Shown piece by piece: positions 10,945 through 55,928 of a stretch of 64,000 nt of DNA. Below the pieces are notes generated by a model. That model saw only the letters and a program-made list of their open reading frames with translations. It did not search any database and had not been told where the DNA came from. Both the position numbers and the translations under genes were made by a program. The stretch covers positions 66,791 to 130,790 of the forward strand of contig CAYFJX010000005.1 in the NCBI GenBank assembly GCA_964343705.1, in the 5' to 3' direction. The stretch's first letter is position 1. The number at the start of each line of letters is the position of its first letter. Source of the DNA: an uncultured Methanosarcinales archaeon (lineage in GTDB: Archaea > Nanobdellota > Nanobdellia > Woesearchaeales > UBA12501).

Positions 10945-11154
10945 GGGTGTGTCCCAAGAGTCTTTCTGAGGGGTGGCACTGCCGCAAGGTTTTATCAGGA
11001 AATCTCAAGGGGCGAAGCTCCTTGACGCATCTGAGCTTTGCTCAGATTGCGGCCGAATAATGAGGTGATTTCCGTTAACACTACGAATGAATTTGAGTAG
11101 TTAACACCGCAGTGCCACCCCTCCTGCACAAAAAGCAAGATTTGGGACACACCC
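10945..11154 (+). mobile_element. 210-bp MITE-like element, copy 1 (TIRs GGGTGTGTCCCAA / TTGGGACACACCC, subterminal GGGGTGGCACTGC / GCAGTGCCACCCC)
   Basis: The reverse complement of 53706..53915 matches this copy at 209 of 210 positions. Perfect 13-bp terminal inverted repeats. No ORF inside. Confidence 0.8.
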
Positions 11155-15135: not shown

Positions 15136-16402
15136 GTTCTTTAAATGCCTCACCAACTAGGTAGATAGAACCAGCAACAACAATCAGGCTATTTGGTCGT
15201 GTGATGGCACGTGCTTTGTCAAGTGCTTCTTTAACATTTTGTGACATAAGAATAACCTTGGTTTCTTCTTCTGGCAGGATCTTGTTGGCATTGTTGTAGG
15301 TGGTGTATATCTTTTCTGGTTCCTCGCTCCTGAAAAATTCAGGTTTTGTGAGGATTATTCTGGTGAAGTGGGGGAATAAGGTAGTTGTCATTTGTTTAAT
15401 GTCTTTGTTGTCCATTGCAGCAAAAACTAAGATGAGTTCATCATACCCAAGTCGCAGTTTAGCAAGTTCCTTGCACAGGGTCTTAACTCCTTGTAGGTTG
15501 TGTGCACAGTCAAATAAGAACTCCTTATTGTCTAGTTGTGCAAATTGCATTCGTCCAGGCCAGTGCACATTCATAAGTCCTTTATGTTGTTGTTCAACAG
15601 TTGTTGACAGTGACTCTATAAGTTGCATTGCACAATTTGCAACTGCAGCGTTTTGTTTTTGGTATTTTCCTTTGAGGTTAGTTTGTGCATAATCAATATC
15701 TTCCTGGTCAATTTTGAGGAGTCGGGCTTTTTTTTCCTGGCATACATTGTGCAACACAGTGAGTACTGTTTCATCGGTGTTGCTGGTAAGTACAGGAACA
15801 CCTTGCTTGATTATTCCTGCTTTTTCAAATGCAATTTTTTCAATGGTATCACCTAAGTGTTCAGTATGTTCAAGTGCAATGTGAGTGATAATGCTGAGCA
15901 AGGTGTTTTCTGCAGGGATAACATTGGTTGCGTCAAAGCGACCGCCTAGGCCTGTTTCAAGTACAACAATGTCAGTGTTGTTTTCTGCAAAGTAATCTAG
16001 TGCCATTACTGTGGTGACTTCAAAGAAGGTTTGATCAGTTCTCAGCTGAAGAAGTTTTTCTGCTCGTTGCTCAAGTTCATGATCTGAGATTGGTGTGTTG
16101 TTTATTTTGATGCGTTCATTGAACTTGATTAAGTGAGGGGAAGTGTAGAGTCCAACTTTTAATCCTGTTTGTTGGAGGATGCTAGCAAGCATTGCACAGG
16201 TTGAACCCTTGCCATTGGTTCCTGCAACGTGGATGACCTTGAGCTTTTTTTCTGGATTGTTAAGCTTGGTAAGGAGTTCAAAGGTAGGGTCAAGTCTCAA
16301 TTGTGACCCAAATCGTTTAAGTGAATATAATTCTTGTATTTTTGACATGTTTTTGGTGGGGTGAATGCAGGGTATATATGTATTGTTGTGTTGGGCTGAC
16401 AT
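15116..16402 (-). CDS. folC: folylpolyglutamate synthase / dihydrofolate synthase (Mur ligase family)
   Basis: P-loop 'VIHVAGTNGKGST', 'YTSPHL'. Mur ligase middle and C-terminal domains. Confidence 0.82.
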   Translation of the reverse strand: MSAQHNNTYIPCIHPTKNMSKIQELYSLKRFGSQLRLDPTFELLTKLNNPEKKLKVIHVAGTNGKGSTCAMLASILQQTGLKVGLYTSPHLIKFNERIKINNTPISDHELEQRAEKLLQLRTDQTFFEVTTVMALDYFAENNTDIVVLETGLGGRFDATNVIPAENTLLSIITHIALEHTEHLGDTIEKIAFEKAGIIKQGVPVLTSNTDETVLTVLHNVCQEKKARLLKIDQEDIDYAQTNLKGKYQKQNAAVANCAMQLIESLSTTVEQQHKGLMNVHWPGRMQFAQLDNKEFLFDCAHNLQGVKTLCKELAKLRLGYDELILVFAAMDNKDIKQMTTTLFPHFTRIILTKPEFFRSEEPEKIYTTYNNANKILPEEETKVILMSQNVKEALDKARAITRPNSLIVVAGSIYLVGEAFKELNIATH

Positions 16403-16553
16403 TTTGTAGGTGGGCTAGGTTCAGCAAATTCTTCAAAATCAAGGAATATTTTCAACTGCACAGATCTAGCATTTTTTAATCCGCCCTGAAGGGCGGTTAA
16501 AACTGTGCAATGTTTGATTGGTTTTTGAAACAGCCCAAGCTGAAACTAATTTT
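16402..16553 (+). repeat. about 152-nt intergenic element, copy A of a 2-member family (candidate structured ncRNA)
   Basis: About 75-80% identical to 42346..42500 in the same orientation. Internal GC hairpin CCGCCC-TGAA-GGGCGG is replaced in copy B by CCAGGCCGG-AAC-CCGGCCTGG (compensatory). Conserved TGGGCT...AGCCCA closing pair. Oligo-T 3' end. Confidence 0.5.
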
Positions 16554-16666
16554 CCCCCTTTACAAACCCATACCTTTATATAGCCCCTATTGCCTCTTTT
16601 CATCATCTGAGTGCCCCAAAGGGGAATTACAGCGCTGGCTGTATGTAAGTCTCGGGAGGACAAAAA

Positions 16667-18994: not shown

Positions 18995-21185
18995 CCAGTC
19001 TCATTTGCCGCAAAAGACGGGCCCTGAAAATAATTGCACCATCAGCATGCTTCATACCATGTTGGTGGAGTGTATCCATAACAAGCTGTTGCTGACTAAT
19101 ATTATGTTGAGGTACATCAAGCAAGAGACCATGTGCTCCGTTGTAATTATTAGTGTTAGCATAGATGATAGCCAATCTTTCATACGCTGCTTCGTGTTGA
19201 TCGTTGCCTGGTTCATTCTTATTGCGCAGCCGTTGTGTTAGAGATGTTGTGTACTCATCTAGCATCTCCTGCGCGCCAAATGCCCGGACAGCCTTGAAAT
19301 AGCTTTGTACTTCTGCGAGGTCTGCTTCATGTAATCTATCCAAGCATTGTTGAAGTTGATATACTGCGTAGGTGTCTAACTCATCGACGGTATCCTTGTG
19401 CAGTTTTAGAGCATCCCTAATTGCAGTGGCACTATCCCCTGGTTTGCCTTCAAACAAACCACCCCAAGAATACGCAACAGTTCTATTTCTTAGTACTACA
19501 GCCTTGTCCCACTCGCCCTGCATGAGCAGGCCAATCATGGCACTATTGTAGATAGCAGGGTCAAAGTCATGTTCACGAACAATTTTTGCGCAGTCATACA
19601 CTGCTTCAGTGTGTCCTTGTTTTGTTTGTTCAATAACCCAATCATGGATAATTGGATTTGCTATATGGCTGCTTAGTATATTTTTTTGTCTTTGCATGAT
19701 GATTTTTAATCCTTGCTTACTAAAATGTTTATAGTGATGAGAAAGCTCCAGCTTACTCCCCTTTTGGTATTTTCTTATAAAACGTGCTATTTGTTGAAGG
19801 CTATGATACTTTGCGTCTTTATGTCTTAGTTGGATGAAACGCGTGCCAAGATAAGCAACAACAGCACCTGCATAAGCAATAGATGGCTGGCCCATTAGTA
19901 GACCTCCTATGAGAGTAGCGGCTGCTGGAATAAGTCCTGGCCAATTACGTGTTCTTAATTTCAAAGCACTGCTCTGTGCAAAAGAAAGACTCTTGTAACG
20001 CTCAGGCCAATCTTTGACAATGGGAGGAAGTCTATCATGTATTTGTTTATTCCAGAAATCAAAATCATTCTCAGGAACTAAATACCGTTCCTGTTGTAGG
20101 GGAACCTTGCTTTTTGTCTCGCCATCAGCAAGCAAAGCCTTTTGTGTTTCAGACCCTGGAAGTTGTTCGCTTGTACCTTGTAGGAGTTTAGTGGTTAAAC
20201 CAACCATTTCAACTGCAAAAGTTCTCATTGCTTCTTCTGAAGGTGCTACCTCATAGATTCCGGTTGTAGGGTTGTAAAAGCCAAGATTACCACCACTTTG
20301 AATAAAAACTTGTTGTATGTTATCTACTGTTTGTGGTCTGTCATGTTGTTCTTCTTGCAAGCATGCTTCAAGTGTTTTCTTTAATGGCTCTGATATGTTT
20401 GGTGCTCGTCGAACATATTTTATTGGATCATAATCATACTGTCCGGGGATATGAAGTGGTGGTTCTATATGTGTTGCGATTGCTTTTGTTGCCAGGGCAA
20501 GGATGTACCAGTCTGTTGCTGTAGTTGTAGGGATAGTGTGAGTGTCATCATCTCTGTTCATATTTTTTCGCTGCTCTGGTGCAAGGTAGTTTGGTTTACC
20601 AATGATTGTTTCACTTCCTGTGCCATGCTGTTTAAGTCGAGCAATGCCAAAGTCTGTGAGCACAACACGGGTGAAGTCAAAGCGATCATACTGTTCAGTA
20701 ACTTCCAACATGATGTTGTGAGGTGTTGGGTCACGATGGTATATTCCTTGCTTGTGTGCAGCTTGGAGTCCGTGAATTGCAGGGAAAAAAAATCGCTCTA
20801 GTTGCTCTGCGGAGAAGTGACTGCCTTCTTTCATAGCTTGCTGAGCAGATATCCCTCTGATAAGTTCCATGAGAATGTGCATTCCAGGACCATAACCAAC
20901 ATCTTCTTTGAAGCTGTCTACATAGCCAACAACATTAGGGTGGGTTATTGCTTTAAGTGCTTGTGCTTCCCGTTCTATCTCTTGCACTTCAGTTGTTTCC
21001 CAATTTGTAATTTTTGAAAAGTCAACAAGTTTGAGTGCGTACTCTTTTCCTGTTTTTCTATCCATAACTTTGTACACAACACCCATGCCTCCACGTCCAA
21101 GTGGCTTGCCAACTCGTTCAAACTGTTCCCATAGTCCTAGTTCTGGATTTCGGATCGTCATTCTTCTATCCTCTGAATAGTGCAC
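18921..21185 (-). CDS. membrane-spanning eukaryotic-like Ser/Thr protein kinase with large C-terminal repeat-rich domain
   Basis: 'GRGGMGVVYKV', 'YALKL', 'YHRDPTPHNIML' (HRD..N), 'DFGIA', 'APEQ'. Hydrophobic stretch 'GLIPAAATLIGGLLMGQPSIAYAGAVVAYLG', then about 330 aa. A likely ATGA start overlap at 21161. Confidence 0.8.
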   Translation of the reverse strand: MHYSEDRRMTIRNPELGLWEQFERVGKPLGRGGMGVVYKVMDRKTGKEYALKLVDFSKITNWETTEVQEIEREAQALKAITHPNVVGYVDSFKEDVGYGPGMHILMELIRGISAQQAMKEGSHFSAEQLERFFFPAIHGLQAAHKQGIYHRDPTPHNIMLEVTEQYDRFDFTRVVLTDFGIARLKQHGTGSETIIGKPNYLAPEQRKNMNRDDDTHTIPTTTATDWYILALATKAIATHIEPPLHIPGQYDYDPIKYVRRAPNISEPLKKTLEACLQEEQHDRPQTVDNIQQVFIQSGGNLGFYNPTTGIYEVAPSEEAMRTFAVEMVGLTTKLLQGTSEQLPGSETQKALLADGETKSKVPLQQERYLVPENDFDFWNKQIHDRLPPIVKDWPERYKSLSFAQSSALKLRTRNWPGLIPAAATLIGGLLMGQPSIAYAGAVVAYLGTRFIQLRHKDAKYHSLQQIARFIRKYQKGSKLELSHHYKHFSKQGLKIIMQRQKNILSSHIANPIIHDWVIEQTKQGHTEAVYDCAKIVREHDFDPAIYNSAMIGLLMQGEWDKAVVLRNRTVAYSWGGLFEGKPGDSATAIRDALKLHKDTVDELDTYAVYQLQQCLDRLHEADLAEVQSYFKAVRAFGAQEMLDEYTTSLTQRLRNKNEPGNDQHEAAYERLAIIYANTNNYNGAHGLLLDVPQHNISQQQLVMDTLHQHGMKHADGAIIFRARLLRQMRLGDDTKKKEIQQAREKLEQLYTFAD

Positions 21186-24100
21186 AAAGTTTGTGTTTCA
21201 TCATTTATGTGAATTCTATAACCAAAGTTTTCTAGGCGCTTTGTTAATGCATCATATTTTGCTTTATTTGGTAACCAGAAACTTGGAGCTGGCCAGTTCT
21301 CACCAGCAAGCAGCCACCATTCAATAGCGTGTTCTGGACTGTTATGAGGTGGCCTCATGAATTGTTGTTGATATTCATTGCATTGTGTTCGTAATGGTCC
21401 TGGAATTTCCAGTTCAAATACTTTGCATGCGTCGACAAATGAGCGAAGTTGGTGAAGCTCCACATCTTCTCCATTATATGTTTCAAGTGCACTTTCTAAA
21501 CACTCGCGAGCAATCCTGTCAATTCTTGTAGTGTTTACACCCTTATGGACTAAGTAATTCTCTTCTGTGTCTTTTGAAGCAATACCTTCATTTGACCGAC
21601 CAGCATAAAGAGGGGGTACTCCATGTTCTACAACACTTAATCGTACATCAAGTGCGAAGTTCCATGCTCCTGACAGTAGTAGCCCATACATAACTGTTTC
21701 ACTTGTTTCAGGCACAACCATGGCTAGGCCAACTGCAGCAATTTGATCTTCATAGACTCCTTTTACAATTTGAGTGGCTGCATAATGCCGTGCAAAAATA
21801 TTTCTGAGTAATCGTCCATGATTATTTTCAATATCATCTAGTATTGGTATCATCTGACTCATGGCATCTAACTTATCTGCGTTTGCTGTATATTGTCTAA
21901 TGCCACGCATACCATTAGGATGACTAACAAAATCACGTATTTTTTGCTCTCGTAGATTTCCTGTTTTTACTTTTCCATGGTTCCAATCATATCTATCAAG
22001 CCATGCTTCCCATGCTTCGCCTTTTGGTGGGGTTAAATATTGTTCTTGTGGAACTTCATTATTGTCGTTGTTTTCTCGTGGCATCAAATCAGGGAACATT
22101 GCTCCTATAAGTCCTATAAGGTGAAACCTTGGTTGTGTTCCTTCCATGTCTTCTCCCATTGCATTATTTTGTAGAAGGGGTTTTTCCTCATCTGTTAGTT
22201 GGTAGATTCTTTCAGTTGGTATGCGCATTTGTTCTGCCCACTCAAGTGGATCTGCTGAAATTCCATGTGCCCATTGTAAGCCAGTTTCTGGTAGCTGGCC
22301 ATACCCACGTGCAATGTTTCTGCCAGTTGCATATATGCGTCCACTATTTCTTCCGACAAGTAATACATTTCTTTGTTCTGGTTCTGAACTTTCATAGTAC
22401 AACATAGCGAGTCTTTCGGTTGCTATGCTATTTTCTACATCAACGGCAGTTGGTGGTGTAATTCCTCGTCGCCGTTCTGCTGCTTCAAGTGATGCCAATC
22501 CTGCAGGTGAGATTGGTGATCTTTGACGTCTTCTGCCTGTTGCTGATGCAGGAATAAAATCAGAAAACTCTCGCTCAATTATTTCTAGGAGTAGTTGTCT
22601 TCTTGGAGATCCAGGTGCTCGTCCTGCACTGTTAGTCCTTTCTAAAAGAGATATCTCATCTCCTTGTAAGCTGTATAATTGTTCATCAGGTATGTTATTA
22701 TCCCTTGCCCAACGTTCAACATTTCGAATACCTGAATAAGAGTACTGCAATCCAAATTCTTCAATTGTTCCTAATTGTGGTCTGATGCCTCTGTCTACTT
22801 CCTCAATCGCATCACCACTTGGGCTGAGGATGAGTATGTTTCTTTCCATAGGTCTTGGTCCAAGAAAGTACACAGCAGCAACATCAGTTCGTGGTTCTGG
22901 TTGTGTTGTTGGAGTTCTTCCTGCTAGTACATCATCAAGTGCACCACCAATATTGTCAGCGTCAATACTTGTACGTTGTTCTCTTCCTGGTTGCTCCAAA
23001 CCTTGTTGACTAAACATATCATTAATCATTCCTGCAACTTCTGTATGGCTTCTTGTAGGATTTAGCAAATCATCATTTAGCCACCCTCGTGGTGTCACAT
23101 GATAGTTATCATCAGTTACTCCCCATCGTTGTTCAATGTTTGTTCTCTCCCGTGCATGAAGAAGCAGGGTGTCATATGATCCAATTGCTGGGTAGCCGCA
23201 GAAGTTGATGTTTCCAATGTACTCCAGTCCTATTTCTTCAATTACTTCTTGTGTTCCTACAATAAGTATTCGTTCAAGGAGCATGTCTGCAAGGATACCA
23301 TGGATTCTTAGATCTCTTTGTGGTGTTGGTGTTGTTGCAACAGCAGGTGTGCTTTGTTCTGTTATAGGCAGTTGTGGTTGAATAAATCTGACAAGCGCAG
23401 CAATATCAGATGGTTCTGATAATCGCGTTCCCAACATTCCAGGTGGTGCAGCAACTCGTTTATAGTTATCTGTATCTCTAAACATATCTCGTGTGCCATT
23501 GGCAACAACTAATCCTTTATAGGGGCCAATATCACGATTGGTAGTTATAATCCCTGCTGGCCCATAGCGTCTCCTCATATTTCTAATTCCTTCTTCATTG
23601 CTAACAATCATGTTGTAACTGGATGTTGAATCTAATAACATGAGGTACTCAGGAGCTTGCGAGTTTACATCTCGTGCAGTTGGCCAATTATCACCAACTA
23701 AATATCTAAATGCGTCAACACCCATGTGTTCGCCTTCTTGCACAACACCATCAACACGAAGCATTGCATCAAGGTCTGCAGGGTCAAGTCTATGCCATCC
23801 TCGTCGTGTGGCAGCAGCTTGTGCACATAACTTAGCAATTAAGGCAGGATTCTCAGGTACTTTGAATTGGTACGCTTCATACACTGCTTGCCAAGTACTT
23901 TGCAAAAGATCAAGAAATGGTCGAGCATGTGTTGTTCGTAAATTCTGTCTAAACTGTGCTTGTGCAACTTCATCAAGAGTTGGGTTTGCAGCAAGTCCAA
24001 GCACCATACTGTCATGCGCGTGAATATTGCTGTGACCCATACGTGTAATCATTAAATCTGCAATTCTTAATTGTGCATAGTGCCATTGCCATTCTTCTAC

Positions 24101-24397
24101 TTGTCGAGGTAATACTGATTTGTTCAAGCCTGTAGCAACTTGTGTTGCTCCTGCACGCATATCTTGGGGTATAGGAGTGTATGATCGTAAATAGTCTTCA
24201 ATAATTGTTTCTACTACTTGGGCATCTCGCTCACGAACACTACCCATTATGTCGCGCACTGTTGTGCTTGGCCCATGTACTTGTAGTCGTAGTGTTCGGA
24301 TAGTGTCATCTACTTTCTTTGCAAGCCAGTCAACATCATTAAGAAATGATGTAGGATTCAAGCCTTTTGCCCTTTTGAGGAAGTCAGTAATGCTCAT
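21158..24397 (-). CDS. giant hypothetical protein (1079 aa), paralogous to the adjacent 866-aa protein
   Basis: Uninterrupted ORF. No signal peptide or TM. Shares block 'WEAWLDRYDWNHGKVKTGN' and a downstream roughly 200-aa region with the 866-aa neighbour. Arg-rich SP-motif linker. Confidence 0.8.
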   Translation of the reverse strand: MSITDFLKRAKGLNPTSFLNDVDWLAKKVDDTIRTLRLQVHGPSTTVRDIMGSVRERDAQVVETIIEDYLRSYTPIPQDMRAGATQVATGLNKSVLPRQVEEWQWHYAQLRIADLMITRMGHSNIHAHDSMVLGLAANPTLDEVAQAQFRQNLRTTHARPFLDLLQSTWQAVYEAYQFKVPENPALIAKLCAQAAATRRGWHRLDPADLDAMLRVDGVVQEGEHMGVDAFRYLVGDNWPTARDVNSQAPEYLMLLDSTSSYNMIVSNEEGIRNMRRRYGPAGIITTNRDIGPYKGLVVANGTRDMFRDTDNYKRVAAPPGMLGTRLSEPSDIAALVRFIQPQLPITEQSTPAVATTPTPQRDLRIHGILADMLLERILIVGTQEVIEEIGLEYIGNINFCGYPAIGSYDTLLLHARERTNIEQRWGVTDDNYHVTPRGWLNDDLLNPTRSHTEVAGMINDMFSQQGLEQPGREQRTSIDADNIGGALDDVLAGRTPTTQPEPRTDVAAVYFLGPRPMERNILILSPSGDAIEEVDRGIRPQLGTIEEFGLQYSYSGIRNVERWARDNNIPDEQLYSLQGDEISLLERTNSAGRAPGSPRRQLLLEIIEREFSDFIPASATGRRRQRSPISPAGLASLEAAERRRGITPPTAVDVENSIATERLAMLYYESSEPEQRNVLLVGRNSGRIYATGRNIARGYGQLPETGLQWAHGISADPLEWAEQMRIPTERIYQLTDEEKPLLQNNAMGEDMEGTQPRFHLIGLIGAMFPDLMPRENNDNNEVPQEQYLTPPKGEAWEAWLDRYDWNHGKVKTGNLREQKIRDFVSHPNGMRGIRQYTANADKLDAMSQMIPILDDIENNHGRLLRNIFARHYAATQIVKGVYEDQIAAVGLAMVVPETSETVMYGLLLSGAWNFALDVRLSVVEHGVPPLYAGRSNEGIASKDTEENYLVHKGVNTTRIDRIARECLESALETYNGEDVELHQLRSFVDACKVFELEIPGPLRTQCNEYQQQFMRPPHNSPEHAIEWWLLAGENWPAPSFWLPNKAKYDALTKRLENFGYRIHINDETQTLCTIQRIEE

Positions 24398-26994
24398 TGT
24401 TCTGACCTCTCAGCAATTCGTTCTTCAATAAATGCTAGCATGGCTTCTTTGTCAGGTAGTGGGTCCCTGTGGTTTCCTACTAATCCTTCTGGCCCAATAA
24501 TGCGATCGTATTTTCGTTCCTGGCCAAGAGTGTGTGCCATCCCTTCTGATACAATAAGTCCATGGTAATCGCCTACTTCACACTGAGTACTCTGTAGTCT
24601 GTTTCTCTGGTAATGTGCTGATAACTCATCAATGAGTGTTTCATTACCAACAATAAGCGCATGGTTTCCTTCTTTCGGATCTACTATGATGTCATACACA
24701 ACTGCTTTTTGCGGTTTTTCAATATATACTAGGCCACCTCCCATGCAAACTTGTAGGCCCATTGGCTTGAGTCTTTCTCTTAATGATCGTGCTTCGGAAA
24801 GCGGGGGGTTTGATGTAATACTATCTGAACTAATTGATACAGTGTTTCCAATAATTAAATTCTCAGCTTCTCCAGAAAGAATTGTAAACTCTGCTGCTCG
24901 TTCATACTGGTTGTTTTCTCTAGCAATACCGTACCTGATTACTGCTTCAGCAGGTTGGTAGCCAAATGTGCGGCAGGTGTCAACATATTTTTGTAAGTCT
25001 TCAAGAGATGCTTCAGCTCTCCTTTCAAACATGTCTGCAAGCACTTCTTGAGCAAGTTTATCAAGCCTTGCAGTCTTATTTGGTCCAAGTGTTTGTATGC
25101 AATAATTATCTTCGTTGTCTTTAGCTTCAATTGCTTTAGGGATAGTACTTACACTGTCGCGGTAACTTGTTTCACTGTTTTGAAGACGAAGACAGCCAGC
25201 TTTGTCTAAGTGCCTTGCACGAATTAATCCTTCAAGTACTGGTTCAAGCATTTCTGGAACATCTGCTGCAAGCTCCATTGCACGTTGATGGTCTCCATCA
25301 ACAATAAGTTTTGCAGCGTAGTGGTTGGCAAGGAATTTGGTTCGTCTAGTGCCTAATTCATATCTTGGGAAAACATCTTTGACAGATTCAGGATTTGTTA
25401 TTCGTAATCGCTCAACCATGTTAGGCAGCTGATCAGAGAATGCTTCTACATTATGATCACTGAAGTTTCCAGTTTTAACTTTTCCTCGGTTCCAGTCGTA
25501 CTTGTCTCGCCATGCTTCCCATTGTCCAATCCCCCTTAGTCGTTCAACTATATTTCGTGCTCTTTTGTAACTAGGTAGGTTTTGATGGTGATTTAATCCA
25601 GTAAGGGTTTGCAGTTCATCGCTGCTTAACACATGTATTTTTTCAGAGGGAGTGCGAATTGCTTCAAGAAATTGTGAAGAAATTCTATCAAAACTAAGTA
25701 GGTAATATTGATGGTGTCTTTGTAGATTGAAATTTCTGACTTCGAAGCTTTGAGCGTAGCTGTGAGTTCTGGACATTTTTCCCTCTATTTCGGGTTTGCA
25801 GTAAAATGTCAGGTCTCCATCTGTTGCATTTTGTGTCACGAAAAGAACCAAGTCATCAAAGCTTGGTCCAAAGTGTTCTTGTATTTTTTGTTTAAGTATC
25901 TCATGTTGTTCTTCTGAAAAACCAGATAGTGTGTCCAAACTTATATTAACACCAAGATTGTCTGCAGTGAACACACGAGGTAGATCAAGCTCTTCTTGTA
26001 CTTGTCGGATCTGGCCAGGGTCTTCTAAAAAAAATACTTGCCGCTTAGCAACTTGTCCCCAGCTTATGTGTCCATTGGGTGGTCCTGCCTGAAGATTATA
26101 GCCAATAAGGTAGGCTTGATCCTCTGCCTCGTTGACAATTAGTCCTTCATACAATAGTTCTAGTGTTGCTGTTTCTACAGGTGCAGCATCAAAACCAGTA
26201 ATAAGGTTTTCAGCAACAGTTCTCAACTGGCCTGGTGTCATTGTTGTACTTCGTGCGCTAAGTTCTATTTCTAATCTCCTAGCTTCAACATCATTTCTAG
26301 CAAAATCTTCTACAGTTTGTGCAATCAATTGAGGGGTGACTTGTAGGCTAGTGGGTTCAGTCCACCCACCTAATGGTTCTTGTGCTTGGATCCTATCAAG
26401 TTCTTCATCTTCACGAACACGCATAACATGGTAAATATCTTCTGCTGTTCCATCACGGAATGCTGAAAAGTTGTGACGTTGTCTCCATCCAATTCGTTGT
26501 AATGCTTCTTCACTTTTGTCACCTTGCCCATTTGCCATAAGCAAAAGATTGATTCCTTCTGCAAGTTCTGCATCTACACCTACAAAAAAGTCGTTTGCAA
26601 ACTTTGCTGCTGCAGCTTTTCTCTCATAATACACTTCCCATCTTTGGCGTTCGTGTTTGCGGCCTGCTACATTGTTTAGAATTGCAAGTTCATGGGGGTC
26701 ACTGGTGTTCCATGCATTATCATTGCGACGCGGTGCGTCTTCAGCAAGGTCTTGATTAAACACTACTTGGTGTGCCCGCATTGCATCAAGATATCCTCCA
26801 ACTGTTTCTTTAACAAGTCGCACGTCCCCATTGCCCTTAAATAAACCCATAAAGTCAAAGTTTGGTCTATCATGTTGGATCAAGCGAAGTGCTGCAATGA
26901 CTTCTTCTGCCAGACTGGTTGTATAGTCAACTGCGTCCAAGAACGAGAACTTGGTGACATTCTCAAGTGTGAGAGGAAGTTCTGGCTTACTCAT
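24394..26994 (-). CDS. giant hypothetical protein (866 aa), paralogue of the 1079-aa protein, with extra C-terminal domain
   Basis: Uninterrupted ORF. Block 'WEAWRDKYDWNRGKVKTGN'. C-terminal about 170 aa with 'VCMGGGLVYI...LIVGNETLIDEL'. ATGA overlap with downstream gene. Confidence 0.8.
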   Translation of the reverse strand: MSKPELPLTLENVTKFSFLDAVDYTTSLAEEVIAALRLIQHDRPNFDFMGLFKGNGDVRLVKETVGGYLDAMRAHQVVFNQDLAEDAPRRNDNAWNTSDPHELAILNNVAGRKHERQRWEVYYERKAAAAKFANDFFVGVDAELAEGINLLLMANGQGDKSEEALQRIGWRQRHNFSAFRDGTAEDIYHVMRVREDEELDRIQAQEPLGGWTEPTSLQVTPQLIAQTVEDFARNDVEARRLEIELSARSTTMTPGQLRTVAENLITGFDAAPVETATLELLYEGLIVNEAEDQAYLIGYNLQAGPPNGHISWGQVAKRQVFFLEDPGQIRQVQEELDLPRVFTADNLGVNISLDTLSGFSEEQHEILKQKIQEHFGPSFDDLVLFVTQNATDGDLTFYCKPEIEGKMSRTHSYAQSFEVRNFNLQRHHQYYLLSFDRISSQFLEAIRTPSEKIHVLSSDELQTLTGLNHHQNLPSYKRARNIVERLRGIGQWEAWRDKYDWNRGKVKTGNFSDHNVEAFSDQLPNMVERLRITNPESVKDVFPRYELGTRRTKFLANHYAAKLIVDGDHQRAMELAADVPEMLEPVLEGLIRARHLDKAGCLRLQNSETSYRDSVSTIPKAIEAKDNEDNYCIQTLGPNKTARLDKLAQEVLADMFERRAEASLEDLQKYVDTCRTFGYQPAEAVIRYGIARENNQYERAAEFTILSGEAENLIIGNTVSISSDSITSNPPLSEARSLRERLKPMGLQVCMGGGLVYIEKPQKAVVYDIIVDPKEGNHALIVGNETLIDELSAHYQRNRLQSTQCEVGDYHGLIVSEGMAHTLGQERKYDRIIGPEGLVGNHRDPLPDKEAMLAFIEERIAERSEQ

Positions 26995-27474: not shown

Positions 27475-27700
27475 TGGGCAAAAGAACACGCCTCTCAGCT
27501 TTTACTCACAGACAATATTAAGCACATTGTTGTCTGTTCGTAATAGTAAAGGTTGTTTGATTTATTTGTCCTTTACTAAAAAGAAACATAAAACCTTTGC
27601 TCCCTAACAAATGAAGTAGGGGGTAGTATATAAACTTTGCGTAGATATTAAGTATTATGAGCTCATTTTTGGCCTAAATAGGCGATTTTGTACATGTTTC

Positions 27701-41502: not shown

Positions 41503-42285
41503 CTACTCAATAAACTCATCTAACAATGCATCATCTGCAAACTCATCAAAGCTTTGATCTCCTGGCCCAGGTGGTTCTGGAATTTCCAAGCCAAATCCTT
41601 CTGGTTTTGCATCTTCAATTTCAATACCGCGCAGTTTTGATTCTGCCTCGAGCGCTTTCTCAATTTCTGCTTGTCTCAAACTTGGCACTGCCTGCCACTT
41701 ATGCAAGATACCTGCACTGATACACTCGTATGGTGGCGCTGAAATATTTCGCCAGCTAAATAATCGCCAGCCTTGCCATTCTTTTTTATCAACACCTTTT
41801 TTCTTATCCATTATTTTCTCAGCCATGGTCCTTGCCTGCCAGCCATGACCTGCAATTGGTCGTTCGTACACAATGTCATAAATATTCTCATGCTTAATCA
41901 GTTTTTGCTCATCCATAAATATGTAACAATATCCTACTTTACGTAAGGCTCTAAACTTGCTGTGGTAATTCATAACCCACACTCTGCCTTCTTCAGTGTT
42001 TACTTTATAGATTGATCCAGTAAAACAGTCATTAAACAAGCAATCAGGGCAGCCATTATGTAAGCCACAGTTCTTTTCTTCCTTCTTGCCATTAATGGCG
42101 TAGTTTATCAAACGAATATCTTTGTTGCTAACAAAATTACCCTCAATGTCAATTTTACCAATGTTTTCAGTTGTTCGTAAGAATGAAAGCTCGCCAGTAA
42201 TGTGGTTGCCTTCTTGCGCTGGAAGCAGTGCAAACACTAATCCAATAAATCCAACAGCAAGCAAGAGTAATAATCGTTCACGCAT
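41503..42285 (-). CDS. hypothetical secreted protein (260 aa)
   Basis: Signal peptide 'LLLLLAVGFIGLVFALL'. Cys-containing and acidic C-terminus. Confidence 0.45.
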   Translation of the reverse strand: MRERLLLLLAVGFIGLVFALLPAQEGNHITGELSFLRTTENIGKIDIEGNFVSNKDIRLINYAINGKKEEKNCGLHNGCPDCLFNDCFTGSIYKVNTEEGRVWVMNYHSKFRALRKVGYCYIFMDEQKLIKHENIYDIVYERPIAGHGWQARTMAEKIMDKKKGVDKKEWQGWRLFSWRNISAPPYECISAGILHKWQAVPSLRQAEIEKALEAESKLRGIEIEDAKPEGFGLEIPEPPGPGDQSFDEFADDALLDEFIE

Positions 42286-42345
42286 ACATGATTTTGTGTG
42301 TTAAGCGTTTTTATAGTTTTAGTTTTTAAGGGTTAAAGGCTAAGG

Positions 42346-42500
42346 TTTTGTAGGTGGGCTAGGTTCAGCAAATTCTTAAAAATCAAAGAAGATTTTAATC
42401 ACACAGATTTAAAATTTATAATCCAGGCCGGAACCCGGCCTGGTTAAAACTGTGTAATATCAGATTGGTTTTTGAAACAGCCCAGACTGAAACTAATTTT
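42346..42500 (+). repeat. about 155-nt intergenic element, copy B of the 16402..16553 family (candidate structured ncRNA)
   Basis: Same orientation as copy A. Conserved flanks. Variant but still self-complementary internal hairpin. Oligo-T end. Confidence 0.5.
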
Positions 42501-42519
42501 GCCTTGCCTTTGTTAACTC

Positions 42520-45754: not shown

Positions 45755-46117
45755 GTTTACAGCCCGCCGGCTATAGTAAAAGACAAATTATTTGGATGCC
45801 TTTTACTATTACGAACAGACAACAATTCCATTGTTATTGTCTGTGAGTATAGTTTATTCTTGGTTTGTTTTGAATTTTTTTTGAGAAGACAGCTAGCACT
45901 AGTCAAAACCCGTCTTCAAGACTGTTATAGAAACCTAGCTACCGCCAGAAACCATTGGAGATTTTGAATAAAGTTGTAACTAAGAAAATGATATTAATTT
46001 TGCCACACATACTGATATTTTTGTGTCATAGTAGTGAATAAAGTGACACTTATATTTAAACCTTTGGTGTAGTAAAATATAAATACTCCCTCATAACTCT
46101 TTGTTTTAGGTGAGCTT

Positions 46118-47712: not shown

Positions 47713-48879
47713 ATGAAAAGACTACTACTCTTAACATTTGTTTTATTGCTTATACCATTGGTTACTGCAGATTCAGTTGATACATACTGTGAACAAGCAC
47801 CCACTGGAAAAGATAATTGTATTAAAGAGATTGCAGTTGATCGTAATGATGTTCAAATCTGTCAACGTATAGAAGCTGATAGTGTGCGTGGCAGTTGTTA
47901 CGAAGCCTTTGCAAATACTATGCAAGACATTGATTTATGTCGGCGTATTCCTAAAGGAGCTCGAGGTTATGATAAGCGTAATAAGTGTTACATGCGATTT
48001 GTAAAAACTAAAGATGATCTTCACATTTGTACTGACCTGGTGAAAACAGAGCGAGGCCAAGATGAGTGTTATGATGAAATTCTTGATAATAATCGTGAGG
48101 ATGTTGGTGTGTGTTCCTTGTTCATCAGTCAAAAGAAACGTTTAAGCTGTTATGTTAAAGTTGCAAAGCGAACCAAGAATGAAGACCTGTGTCAACTGGT
48201 ACTTGATGAAAAAGATCAAGGAAGAAAATCACAATGTAGGTATTGTGAAGTAAAGGGTATTGACTTTAATGAACGATATGATCAATGTAAAAAATACTTT
48301 TTTATGAAAAAAGTCACAGAAGTGTGTAGAGATTACACTAAAGAAGTAAATGAGAAAATGACACGAAGTGAGAAAAAACAATTTACTTTTAATGGTGAAA
48401 ATCCTACTCGTGATCGATTTTGGGTGACACTAAAACAAGCAGATTTTCAAGGTGGTATTGAAAACTATCAGGCTGTCATATTTTATTCAGACGGTGTGCA
48501 GAACGAACAGTTTGCACTAAAAATAGGACAGCACATTACTTCTTCAAAAGCTGATATTGGCGTGCAACTACTTGACTTGTATGAACAAGAAGAAGGGGAT
48601 GACATGGTTTCCTATGGGCGTATCTGTATTTTCAGGCCAAGCAGTAAACAAGGTCAAGAACCAGAGCCAGAACCTGAAGAAGAAAAAGAAGAAGAACCAA
48701 CTGAAGAAGAACCAGAGCCTGAAGTCAAGGAAGAAGAACCAAAAGAAGAGTCAGTAAATGAAATAAAAGAAGAACCTGTTGAAGAAAAAACTGAAGAACC
48801 CAAAAAAGAGCTTGTAAAAATAAAAGAAGGTGGCTTTTTCTATAAGCTGGCAATGGTCTTTAAACGATTGTTTGGTTGA
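47713..48879 (+). CDS. secreted cysteine-rich protein with acidic Glu/Pro/Lys low-complexity tail
   Basis: Signal peptide 'LLLLTFVLLLIPLVTA'. About 20 Cys in the first 200 aa. Tail 'EPEPEPEEEKEEEPTEEEPEPEVKEEEPKEE'. Confidence 0.55.
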   Translation: MKRLLLLTFVLLLIPLVTADSVDTYCEQAPTGKDNCIKEIAVDRNDVQICQRIEADSVRGSCYEAFANTMQDIDLCRRIPKGARGYDKRNKCYMRFVKTKDDLHICTDLVKTERGQDECYDEILDNNREDVGVCSLFISQKKRLSCYVKVAKRTKNEDLCQLVLDEKDQGRKSQCRYCEVKGIDFNERYDQCKKYFFMKKVTEVCRDYTKEVNEKMTRSEKKQFTFNGENPTRDRFWVTLKQADFQGGIENYQAVIFYSDGVQNEQFALKIGQHITSSKADIGVQLLDLYEQEEGDDMVSYGRICIFRPSSKQGQEPEPEPEEEKEEEPTEEEPEPEVKEEEPKEESVNEIKEEPVEEKTEEPKKELVKIKEGGFFYKLAMVFKRLFG

Positions 48880-53598: not shown

Positions 53599-53691
53599 GC
53601 CCTTGTAGCATAGTGGTAGTGCACTGCCTTGGTATGGTCAGTAATGACAACAAAGAGGCAGAGGTCCCGAGTTCAAATCTCGGCAAGGGCT
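53599..53691 (+). tRNA. tRNA-Thr (anticodon GGT) with 21-nt intron at canonical 37/38
   Basis: Acceptor GCCCTTG/CAAGGGC, D stem GCAT/GTGC, anticodon stem CTGCC/GGCAG, loop TTGGTA[intron]A, T arm CCGAG-TTCAAAT-CTCGG. Confidence 0.75.
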
Positions 53692-53705: not shown

Positions 53706-53915
53706 GGGTGTGTCCCAAATCTTGCTTTTTGTGCAGGAGGGGTGGCACTGCGGTGTTAACTACTCAAATCCATTCGTAGTGTTAACGGAAATCACCTCAT
53801 TATTCGGCCGCAATCTGAGCAAAGCTCAGATGCGTCAAGGAGCTTCGCCCCTTGAGATTTCCTGATAAAACCTTGCGGCAGTGCCACCCCTCAGAAAGAC
53901 TCTTGGGACACACCC
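53706..53915 (-). mobile_element. 210-bp MITE-like element, copy 2 (inverted relative to copy 1)
   Basis: Reverse complement matches 10945..11154 at 209 of 210 positions. Immediately 3' of tRNA-Thr. Confidence 0.8.
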
Positions 53916-55449: not shown

Positions 55450-55582
55450 TCACCATGTATCATGAAGCATGGATCATATATAAATCTTTTGATTTTCCGC
55501 TAAAAATTTATAAACACCTACTTTAATCTCCTTCATATGGGCCCGTGGTCTAGTCTGGTATGACGCAATAAAATGAAAAAGT

Positions 55583-55655
55583 GGGTCTGTGGTCTAGTGG
55601 CTATGACATCGCCTCGACACGGCGGGGATCCCCGGTTCGAGTCCGGGCAGACCCA
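55583..55655 (+). tRNA. tRNA-Val (anticodon GAC)
   Basis: Acceptor GGGTCTG/CAGACCC, anticodon stem TCGCC/GGCGG, loop TCGACAC (C at position 33 is unusual), T arm CCCGG-TTCGAGT-CCGGG. Confidence 0.75.
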
Positions 55656-55928
55656 TTTTCATTTTACGTGCATAAAATCTTTGATTTTATTGCGTCGCAT
55701 CGACACGGCGGGATTTTGTTTTTTATGAGTCGTTCCGCAGGGTCGAACATAGTGAGATCCTGCATTGCACTATTGGGTTGATAAGGGGCGTAGCATCCCT
55801 TATCCCTGTAGTTCAAATATTGGCGCCCGAAGGGAGACAATACCTTCGAACGTCAGTGAGAAAGTCCGGGCGGGCCCATGTTTTCTTTTCAACAAACTTT
55901 ATTAATGCTAAAGCCTATTTTGTGACTA

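Follow-up and report, generated by a model that had tools for sequence, protein, structure and literature searches.

The archaeal DNA analyzed here (the window) is a stretch of 64,000 nucleotides (nt) of contig CAYFJX010000005.1. It is AT-rich (39% GC) and carries two intergenic copies, A and B, of a foldable repeat element; a third copy, C, was held in the 1.3 kb by which the source sequence was extended to the left, while a 10-kb extension to the right held none. Copy A is flanked by the genes for FolC, with its start codon at 16348 on the minus strand, and S6e. Copy B is flanked by the gene of a secreted 260-amino-acid (aa) protein (start codon 42285, minus) and that of a 74-aa membrane protein (stop codon 42520, minus), and copy C, likewise intergenic, adjoins a DRG-type GTPase gene. 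The genes beside the three copies have no function in common. An initial annotation, made from the letters of the window, had described A and B as same-orientation intergenic repeats; both were found where it placed them, on the plus strand, with similarity running slightly further than claimed.

Profile searches with nhmmer recovered A and B at E values of about 1e-53 each and the more divergent copy C at 1e-25, and C scored 127 bits with the covariance model. A and B are paralogues on the same strand, and element lengths across the family are about 125 to 175 nt. The flanks of A and B, reported earlier as conserved, consist of outer blocks that are identical at 32/32 and 22/22 nt around a divergent middle; differences between the two copies number 0/32 in the 5′ block, 24/67 in the middle, and 6/56 in the 3′ block (Fisher p = 8e-6). 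Within the window, the 17-mer GGTGGGCTAGGTTCAGC and the 22-mer GATTGGTTTTTGAAACAGCCCA were found at the A and B sites only, and none of 100 shuffles gave two matches. Copy C is without these outer blocks; the core common to all three copies spans about 117 nt of the three-copy alignment and includes a conserved 3′ segment, AAUGUCAGAUUGG. No further copies were detected in the window, in the 10-kb extension on the right, or in 35 kb of sequence belonging to the nearest relatives, which puts family density at three copies within about 75 kb. The same DNA is present in several ENA/Logan assemblies of project PRJEB17505. These alignments show A, B, and C to be paralogues that make up a small family, specific to the lineage and with a common core that is predicted to fold.

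Table 1. Positions of the three copies, their predicted helices, and the candidate promoter and terminator sequences (window coordinates except for copy C)
Feature	Position	Strand	Remarks
Copy A, whole element, 169 nt	16393..16561	+	Between the divergent FolC gene and the S6e promoter; ends from the A/B alignment
Copy B, whole element, 175 nt	42337..42511	+	Between the 260-aa gene and the 74-aa gene
Copy C	L032:93-215	minus (opposite to A and B)	About 1.1 kb left of window position 1
UUCAGCAAA	A 16420..16428; B 42364-42372	+	Invariant in all three copies (three-copy alignment)
P1 closing helix, 5′ strand, A	16407..16430 (B 42351-42374)	+	UAG-G-UGGGCU-A-G..UCAG-C-AAAUU; partner 16520-16542
P1 closing helix, 3′ strand, A	16520..16542 (B 42467-42489)	+	GGUUU-UUGA-AA-C-AGCCCA-AG-CUG
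P2 small AU hairpin	16435..16452 (B 42379-42396)	+	AAAAU/AUUUU, purine-rich loop; CAAGGAAU in A
P3 arm, A	16458..16508	+	Made up of P3a, P3b, and P3c
P3a of A	16458-63 with 16503-08	+	GCACAG/CUGUGC
P3b of A	16475-79 with 16497-501	+	UUUAA/UUAAA
P3c of A	16481-96	+	CCGCCC-UGAA-GGGCGG
P3 arm, B	42401..42455	+	P3a is ACACAG/CUGUGU (G-C to A-U)
P3c of B	42423-42443	+	CCAGGCCGG-AAC-CCGGCCUGG
TATA box, copy A, TATATATG	16373..16380		Near-symmetric; 33 nt from the FolC start codon (minus, from 16381); about 28-30 nt upstream of copy A
TATA box, copy B, TTTTTATA	42308..42315		30 nt upstream of G42338 (sense); about 30 nt from the start codon at 42285 (other direction)
3′ tail of A, UUUUCCCCCUUU	16550..16561	+	Weak oligo-U terminator candidate
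3′ tail of B, UUUUGCCUUGCCUUU	42497-42511	+	Weak oligo-U terminator candidate

In the predicted fold, the closing helix P1 is succeeded by P2, a small AU hairpin, and then by the long arm P3. P1 contains four G.U pairs and no A.C mismatch, each of the five pairs of P2 is paired in all three copies, and the P3b helix of the core carries a bulged U. The UGGGCU/AGCCCA closing helix of the initial annotation is predicted in both A and B; the segment is absent from copy C, whose ends are closed by a perfect 10-bp helix of its own (CUAAUCUGAC/GUCAGAUUGG). Likewise, the central GC hairpins read as described, differing between A and B and self-complementary in both. The tip of C has the stem of B with the loop AUC in place of AAC, and the stem of A is different and shorter. 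In copy C, the folded core is kept and a separate closing helix is built. A further hairpin, AUUGAACAGC-AAA-GCUGUUUAAU, is intact in C and deleted or degenerate in A and B.

Over the 25 pairs proposed for the three-copy core, 98.6% of cells were paired, compared to 27 to 51% after the partners were slid by 1 to 3 columns. Four of these pairs had changed on both sides, one in GCACAG/CUGUGC (G-C to A-U) and three in the GC tip. Since the pairing value was matched by 10 of 500 shuffles and only three sequences are available, we regard these statistics as supportive, not conclusive. Fold z-scores were −2.4 for A, −3.4 for B, and −6.4 for C, and the sense strand of C folded at −59.8 kcal/mol versus −49.7 kcal/mol for the antisense. 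By inspection, the shared and closing helices together contain six G.U pairs and no A.C mismatch, an asymmetry that favors the strand called plus in the initial annotation.

The placement of the copies relative to their neighbors was similar throughout. Most genes in the window are leaderless, with a TTTAWATA box beginning about 30 to 35 nt before the start codon, and every copy turns its 5′ end toward a divergent gene that is apparently leaderless. From the start codon of that gene to the conserved or structured part, the distance is 46, 53, and 58 nt in the three copies, and from the same codon to UUCAGCAAA it is 72 nt in A, 79 nt in B, and 76 nt in C. A TATA-like box lies 27 to 33 nt upstream of the structured part in all three cases, either shared with or adjacent to the neighboring promoter. 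The box at copy A is a candidate shared bidirectional promoter, and at copy C a further TATA-like box, back to back with the first, precedes the closing helix by 30 nt. Bidirectional firing of TATA boxes is documented in archaea, with divergent start sites around one box 49 to 52 bp apart (PMC6640164; bioRxiv 10.1101/2020.01.31.928960). As the 46- to 58-nt placement matches this spacing, each element starts close to the point at which the neighbor's promoter would be expected to initiate a transcript on the other strand. At the other end, the oligo-T tail that had been likened to an archaeal terminator does exist in A and B, as a run of four T residues; it is weak, and longer T runs lie inside the elements.

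Comparisons with known RNA families bore out the earlier statement that the element matches none of them: no Rfam family, transfer RNA (tRNA), signal recognition particle (SRP) RNA, RNase P, C/D, or H/ACA RNA was matched. Rfam 15, whose models also take in 5S RNA, riboswitches, HEARO, and ribozymes, was searched at gathering and permissive thresholds with the window and all three copies and returned nothing on the elements; its gathering-level matches in the window were two tRNAs outside them, and the best scores on the elements were 11 to 21 bits (E 0.17 to 10) from unrelated families. tRNA and transfer-messenger RNA were rejected, as ARAGORN detected only 53599-53691 and 55582-55656. A C/D box small RNA (sRNA) was rejected on the absence of UGAUGA from the sense strand and on length (125 to 175 nt versus about 50 to 70 nt); a CUGA-UUU-UGAUGA sequence occurs on the antisense strand of C only and is degenerate in A and B. 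An H/ACA sRNA was likewise rejected, the lower stem of P3 being followed by AAU instead of an ACA box and the internal loop being without tandem G.A pairs. SRP-like and kink-turn motifs were considered by eye and supported by no model. A coding function was rejected as well, since the copies have no frame in common, an indel shifts the frames in B, and stops block C. A search with the peptide of a spurious open reading frame overlapping copy C returned nothing.

Ends and recombination sites of mobile elements were considered in the same manner. An IS200/IS605 palindrome-associated element or omega-RNA end was dismissed on the single central GC hairpin, whose sequence varies between copies, and no transposase family, IS200/IS605 or other, was among the Pfam annotations of the examined contigs. 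As an integron attC site, GGTTAAAAC fails at the final Y, and there is no inverse core, array, or integrase. The best Rfam score for a CRISPR direct repeat was 17.6 bits against a threshold of 36 bits, and no array was present. Like a miniature inverted-repeat transposable element (MITE), the family is small, non-coding, and multicopy (three copies, no shared frame). Terminal inverted repeats were rejected, as UGGGCU/AGCCCA sits 10 to 20 nt inside the ends and is missing in C. GTTAA flanks copy B on both sides (42332-36 and 42512-16), which has a random chance of about 0.06 with boundaries that are uncertain, and no target-site duplication was seen at A (GTGTT / ACAAA) or C.

The closest other FolC sequences are only 58 to 60% identical, the named matches being annotated as Woesearchaeota or Nanoarchaeota, among others, so the lineage is sparsely sampled. 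In one relative (L010), the syntenic region upstream of the GTPase gene had GC hairpins without significant similarity to the element. A 12-mer, GTTTTTGAAACA, is common to the 3′ block of the element and the region upstream of S6e in a relative (p of about 0.003 before correction for 18 comparisons), and any relationship is unproven. Large collections were searched by exact 17- to 22-mers only, which limits sensitivity there. The split pattern GTGGGCTAGG..AACAGCCCA gave five unrelated matches in viral contigs (four GC-rich and one AT-rich and coding-like), two core patterns gave nothing but chance matches in viral contigs, and the 18-mer GTGGGCTAGGTTCAGCAA gave three chance matches, all bacterial, in 185,579 genomes. 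Thirteen matches to GGTGGGCTAGGTTCAGCA in JGI metagenomes did not extend past the pattern, and the three inspected were coding sequence for GGLGS. Neither phages, queried with A, nor plasmids, queried with C, gave a blastn match, and a literature search on non-coding RNAs of Woesearchaeota yielded nothing useful. Overall, the elements form a genuine family of structured repeats with three members, which none of the libraries searched contains.

Two main explanations were weighed. The one we favor, tentatively and at somewhat less than an even chance, is a lineage-specific family of independently transcribed, structured small RNAs. It is preferred because of the conserved core, the double changes that keep pairs, the separate closing helix in C, the G.U asymmetry, and the fixed promoter-side placement. 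A number of findings weigh against it. The difference between the GC tips, from which co-variation and a functional RNA were originally argued, is a wholesale swap between two stem types rather than stepwise covariation, and with three sequences the statistics are modest. Minimum free energy gave no strand preference in A and B. The hairpin that is intact in C and lost or degenerate in A and B appears dispensable. Sites shared pairwise (13 for A=B, 10 for A=C, 17 for B=C) form a mosaic as in recombining repeats. The 3′ tail has T4 only, with T6 and T5 runs inside A and a T5 run inside B, and many divergent archaeal transcripts have been argued to be non-functional (PMC6640164). Exact complementarity and duplex energy revealed RNA targets no better than those of shuffled seeds. 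The covariance-model search of related genomes suggested in the initial annotation was run, with filters off, over 35 kb from the contigs of FolC relatives, and neither it nor nhmmer found the element. The start codons of FolC and S6e are 318 nt apart here versus 147 nt in a syntenic relative with back-to-back TATA boxes and no element; next to that relative, copy A looks like an insertion, which would mean a lineage-specific gain, or loss elsewhere. Neither the nearest relatives nor any collection searched, the large ones by exact 17- to 22-mers, yielded a homologue; what usually proves an RNA functional, conservation across species, is therefore lacking.

The chief alternative is a modular selfish intergenic repeat, MITE-like or similar to BOX, ERIC, or Correia elements, that would spread by transposition or recombination into AT-rich promoter regions; its hairpins would be palindromic DNA and any RNA incidental. 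We consider this a serious possibility, though somewhat less likely than the RNA family. It fits the restriction to one lineage, the insertion-like position of copy A between back-to-back promoters, and the mosaic similarity with modules gained or lost and a tip swapped wholesale. It also accounts about as well as an RNA does for the conserved ends and variable interior of A and B. Copy B has imperfect terminal inverted repeats (AGGCTAAGG/CCTTGCCT) in addition to the flanking GTTAA, the same genome has a clearly active MITE and a third hairpin repeat family, and some low-coverage ENA/Logan contigs terminate in or beside the copies. Other findings weigh against it. A and C are without a target-site duplication, the segment with the best inverted repeat is internal, 10 to 20 nt from the ends, and the copies are far from identical. 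No transposase, integrase, or reverse transcriptase occurs among the Pfam-annotated genes, the annotation covering the greater part of about 75 kb but not 27.2-31.5 kb or 52.3-56.2 kb of the window. The termini of C bear no relation to those of its two paralogues even though the core is kept, which is the opposite of the behavior expected of a transposase-dependent element. Finally, one folded strand seems to have been under selection, to judge from the G.U-only asymmetry and the independent closing helix of C, and placement and orientation relative to the divergent start codon are alike in all three copies. That same placement, together with documented bidirectional firing and the U runs and strong hairpins inside A and B, could instead reflect a cis-acting insulator or terminator cassette, which would halt the divergent transcript before it reaches a neighboring promoter or runs antisense into a neighboring gene. 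What is protected downstream would differ from copy to copy: the promoter of S6e, the antisense strand of the 74-aa gene, or a segment rich in GC. We find this improbable, as archaeal termination needs oligo-T only and would leave the 32- and 22-nt identities and an invariant core of more than 100 nt unexplained; copy C has no T run longer than four, and most divergent promoters in the window have no such element. Least credible are neutral, functionless remnants of old segmental duplications of intergenic DNA: three copies in one lineage and a hairpin decayed in A and B agree with this idea, whereas the strongly non-uniform divergence noted above, the double changes that preserve pairing, the new closing helix of C, and the consistent position relative to start codons do not. 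Both of these last accounts are less likely than an RNA family or a selfish repeat.

Under the small-RNA reading, the elements would be stand-alone, highly structured RNA genes of about 125 to 175 nt, read from the plus strand in A and B. Each copy would be transcribed divergently from the TATA region of the neighboring leaderless gene, with the neighbor's own near-symmetric TATA box as the promoter in A and B and the second, back-to-back box in C. The ends of the RNA would be closed by P1, a helix whose sequence is free to differ, followed by a conserved, largely unpaired 5′ segment (UUCAGCAAAKUCWUMAAAAUCA), P2, and the long arm P3. The base of P3 is conserved, and its exchangeable GC-rich tip may be merely a stabilizing clamp. 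The working surfaces would then probably be the unpaired 5′ segment and the base of P3, for target base pairing or protein binding. A more far-reaching version of this proposal, which we put forward as unlikely, is that the family represents an undescribed class of structured small RNA of a Woesearchaeota-like (DPANN) lineage, present as several paralogues and born at the divergent side of bidirectional TATA promoters as domesticated promoter noise, whose invariant single-stranded 5′ segment and arm base would serve as the binding surface of a ribonucleoprotein or an antisense regulator. To our knowledge, almost no regulatory RNAs have been characterized in the uncultivated DPANN archaea. Should the RNA family be real, it would be a tangible example of how pervasive divergent transcription can give rise to a stable product, and its covariance model would be a handle for mining DPANN genomes. 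Should the elements instead be selfish, they would show, together with the MITE of the window, that such a genome carries several active or recent structured repeat families, which matters for assembly and annotation. General impact is limited in that the family is confined to one sparsely sampled lineage.

Two other repeat families were encountered in the window. One is a textbook MITE of 210 nt, at 10945-11154 and 53706-53915 in inverted orientation; one base differs in the printed sequences, where the repeat search had called 100% complementarity. Its termini are perfect inverted repeats of 13 bp (GGGTGTGTCCCAA), and its target-site duplications measure 9 bp: ATTCTTTAC for the copy situated 15 nt downstream of a tRNA and TAAAATGAG for the other. 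The element folds at −99 kcal/mol (z = −10), matches nothing in Rfam, and contains the start or end of at least two ENA contigs. Because the two arms point in opposite directions, assemblies may be ambiguous as to which way the intervening 42.5-kb segment, with A and B in it, is oriented. The other family comprises two intergenic copies of about 85 nt, at 27503-27578 (plus) and 45774-45849 (minus), that are 79% identical, the left one within a 968-nt gene-free gap. The stems ACAGACAAU/AUUGUUGUCUGU and UAGUAAAGG/CCUUUACUA are conserved, and the loops differ between copies. A relationship of this family to the A/B/C core was considered on a weak collinear resemblance and set aside as unproven, given covariance-model scores of 9 to 11 bits on both strands and an unconvincing alignment.

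Several neighboring features were also recorded. Unlike most genes in the window, S6e is preceded by a 5′ leader, about 60 nt long, that follows the TATA box at 16575-16582 (total span, 16575-16666) and contains two small hairpins and GGGAGGA as the ribosome-binding site. A relative (L009) shows this arrangement, too, upstream of S6e, in the order TATA box, CCCCT, two hairpins, and UAAGUYUCGGGAGGA, and the leader may be of a conserved ribosomal-protein type. Just 3′ of copy C, about 1.25 to 1.32 kb left of the window start (L032:1-75), a GC-rich stretch of about 45 nt ending in CCCACAUUUU is followed by a perfect 9-bp palindrome, GTCTTTTGT-TAC-ACAAAAGAC, with no Rfam match; three ENA contigs (L032-L034) start there at one and the same base, a hint that a repeat or a structural RNA gene follows farther out. 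Two giant genes of 1079 and 866 aa (21158-24397 and 24394-26994, minus) adjoin one another and are partly paralogous; they are situated upstream of a 746-aa Ser/Thr kinase gene of that strand, with overlap. Among 5.8 billion proteins, the 866-aa product had no homologue but itself, neither giant gene has a listed Pfam domain, and the window's two kinases show no relationship to one another. The tRNA gene at 53599-53691 (93 nt; Rfam, 60.6 bits) probably bears an intron, and its anticodon was left unassigned by ARAGORN. A degenerate tandem repeat at 48644-48834, rich in GAA and CCA codons (acidic E/P/K-rich low complexity), lies inside a 388-aa gene. About 5.5 to 6.7 kb right of the window end (L035:3257-4450), a free-standing gene for a 397-aa LAGLIDADG homing-endonuclease-like protein is situated between NDK and EF-2.

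Among known systems, the nearest functional analogies are paralogous archaeal sRNAs of single lineages and the modular intergenic repeats of bacteria. Multicopy, lineage-specific sRNA families have been reported in Sulfolobus and Methanosarcina. Like these, the present elements are intergenic, 100 to 200 nt long, present as several paralogues in a narrow lineage, and composed of an unpaired segment and stable hairpins; unlike them, they have no clear oligo-T terminator, are placed at the divergent side of neighboring promoters, and are known from sequence alone. The bacterial BOX, ERIC, and Correia/NEMIS elements are modular intergenic repeats that resemble the family in their exchangeable or missing internal modules, stable RNA structure, and promoter-adjacent position, although they are bacterial and bear no sequence relationship to A, B, and C. 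With attC sites and CRISPR repeats, A and B have in common a stem that varies while self-complementarity and flanks (AAUCC...GGUUAAAAC) are kept, but the core sites RYYYAAC / GTTRRRY are absent, as is any integrase or cas gene among the annotated neighbors. MITEs, that of the window included, are similarly small, non-coding, intergenic, and foldable into a long hairpin, and the conserved ends and variable interior of A and B are a further likeness. The MITE of the window, with its nearly identical copies, differs in that A, B, and C are without a consistent duplication, their inverted repeats are subterminal and imperfect, the copies diverge, and the termini of C are unrelated. As this MITE displays what a transposase-dependent element looks like locally, the lack of a consistent set of its features in A, B, and C counts against a selfish repeat. 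A parallel in position is offered by the divergent transcripts of archaeal TATA boxes, which likewise arise from one near-symmetric box on the other strand, about 50 nt from the neighbor's start, as is predicted here (PMC6640164; bioRxiv 10.1101/2020.01.31.928960). Such transcripts are generally unconserved and deemed noise, whereas the region occupied by A, B, and C is conserved, structured, and repeated.

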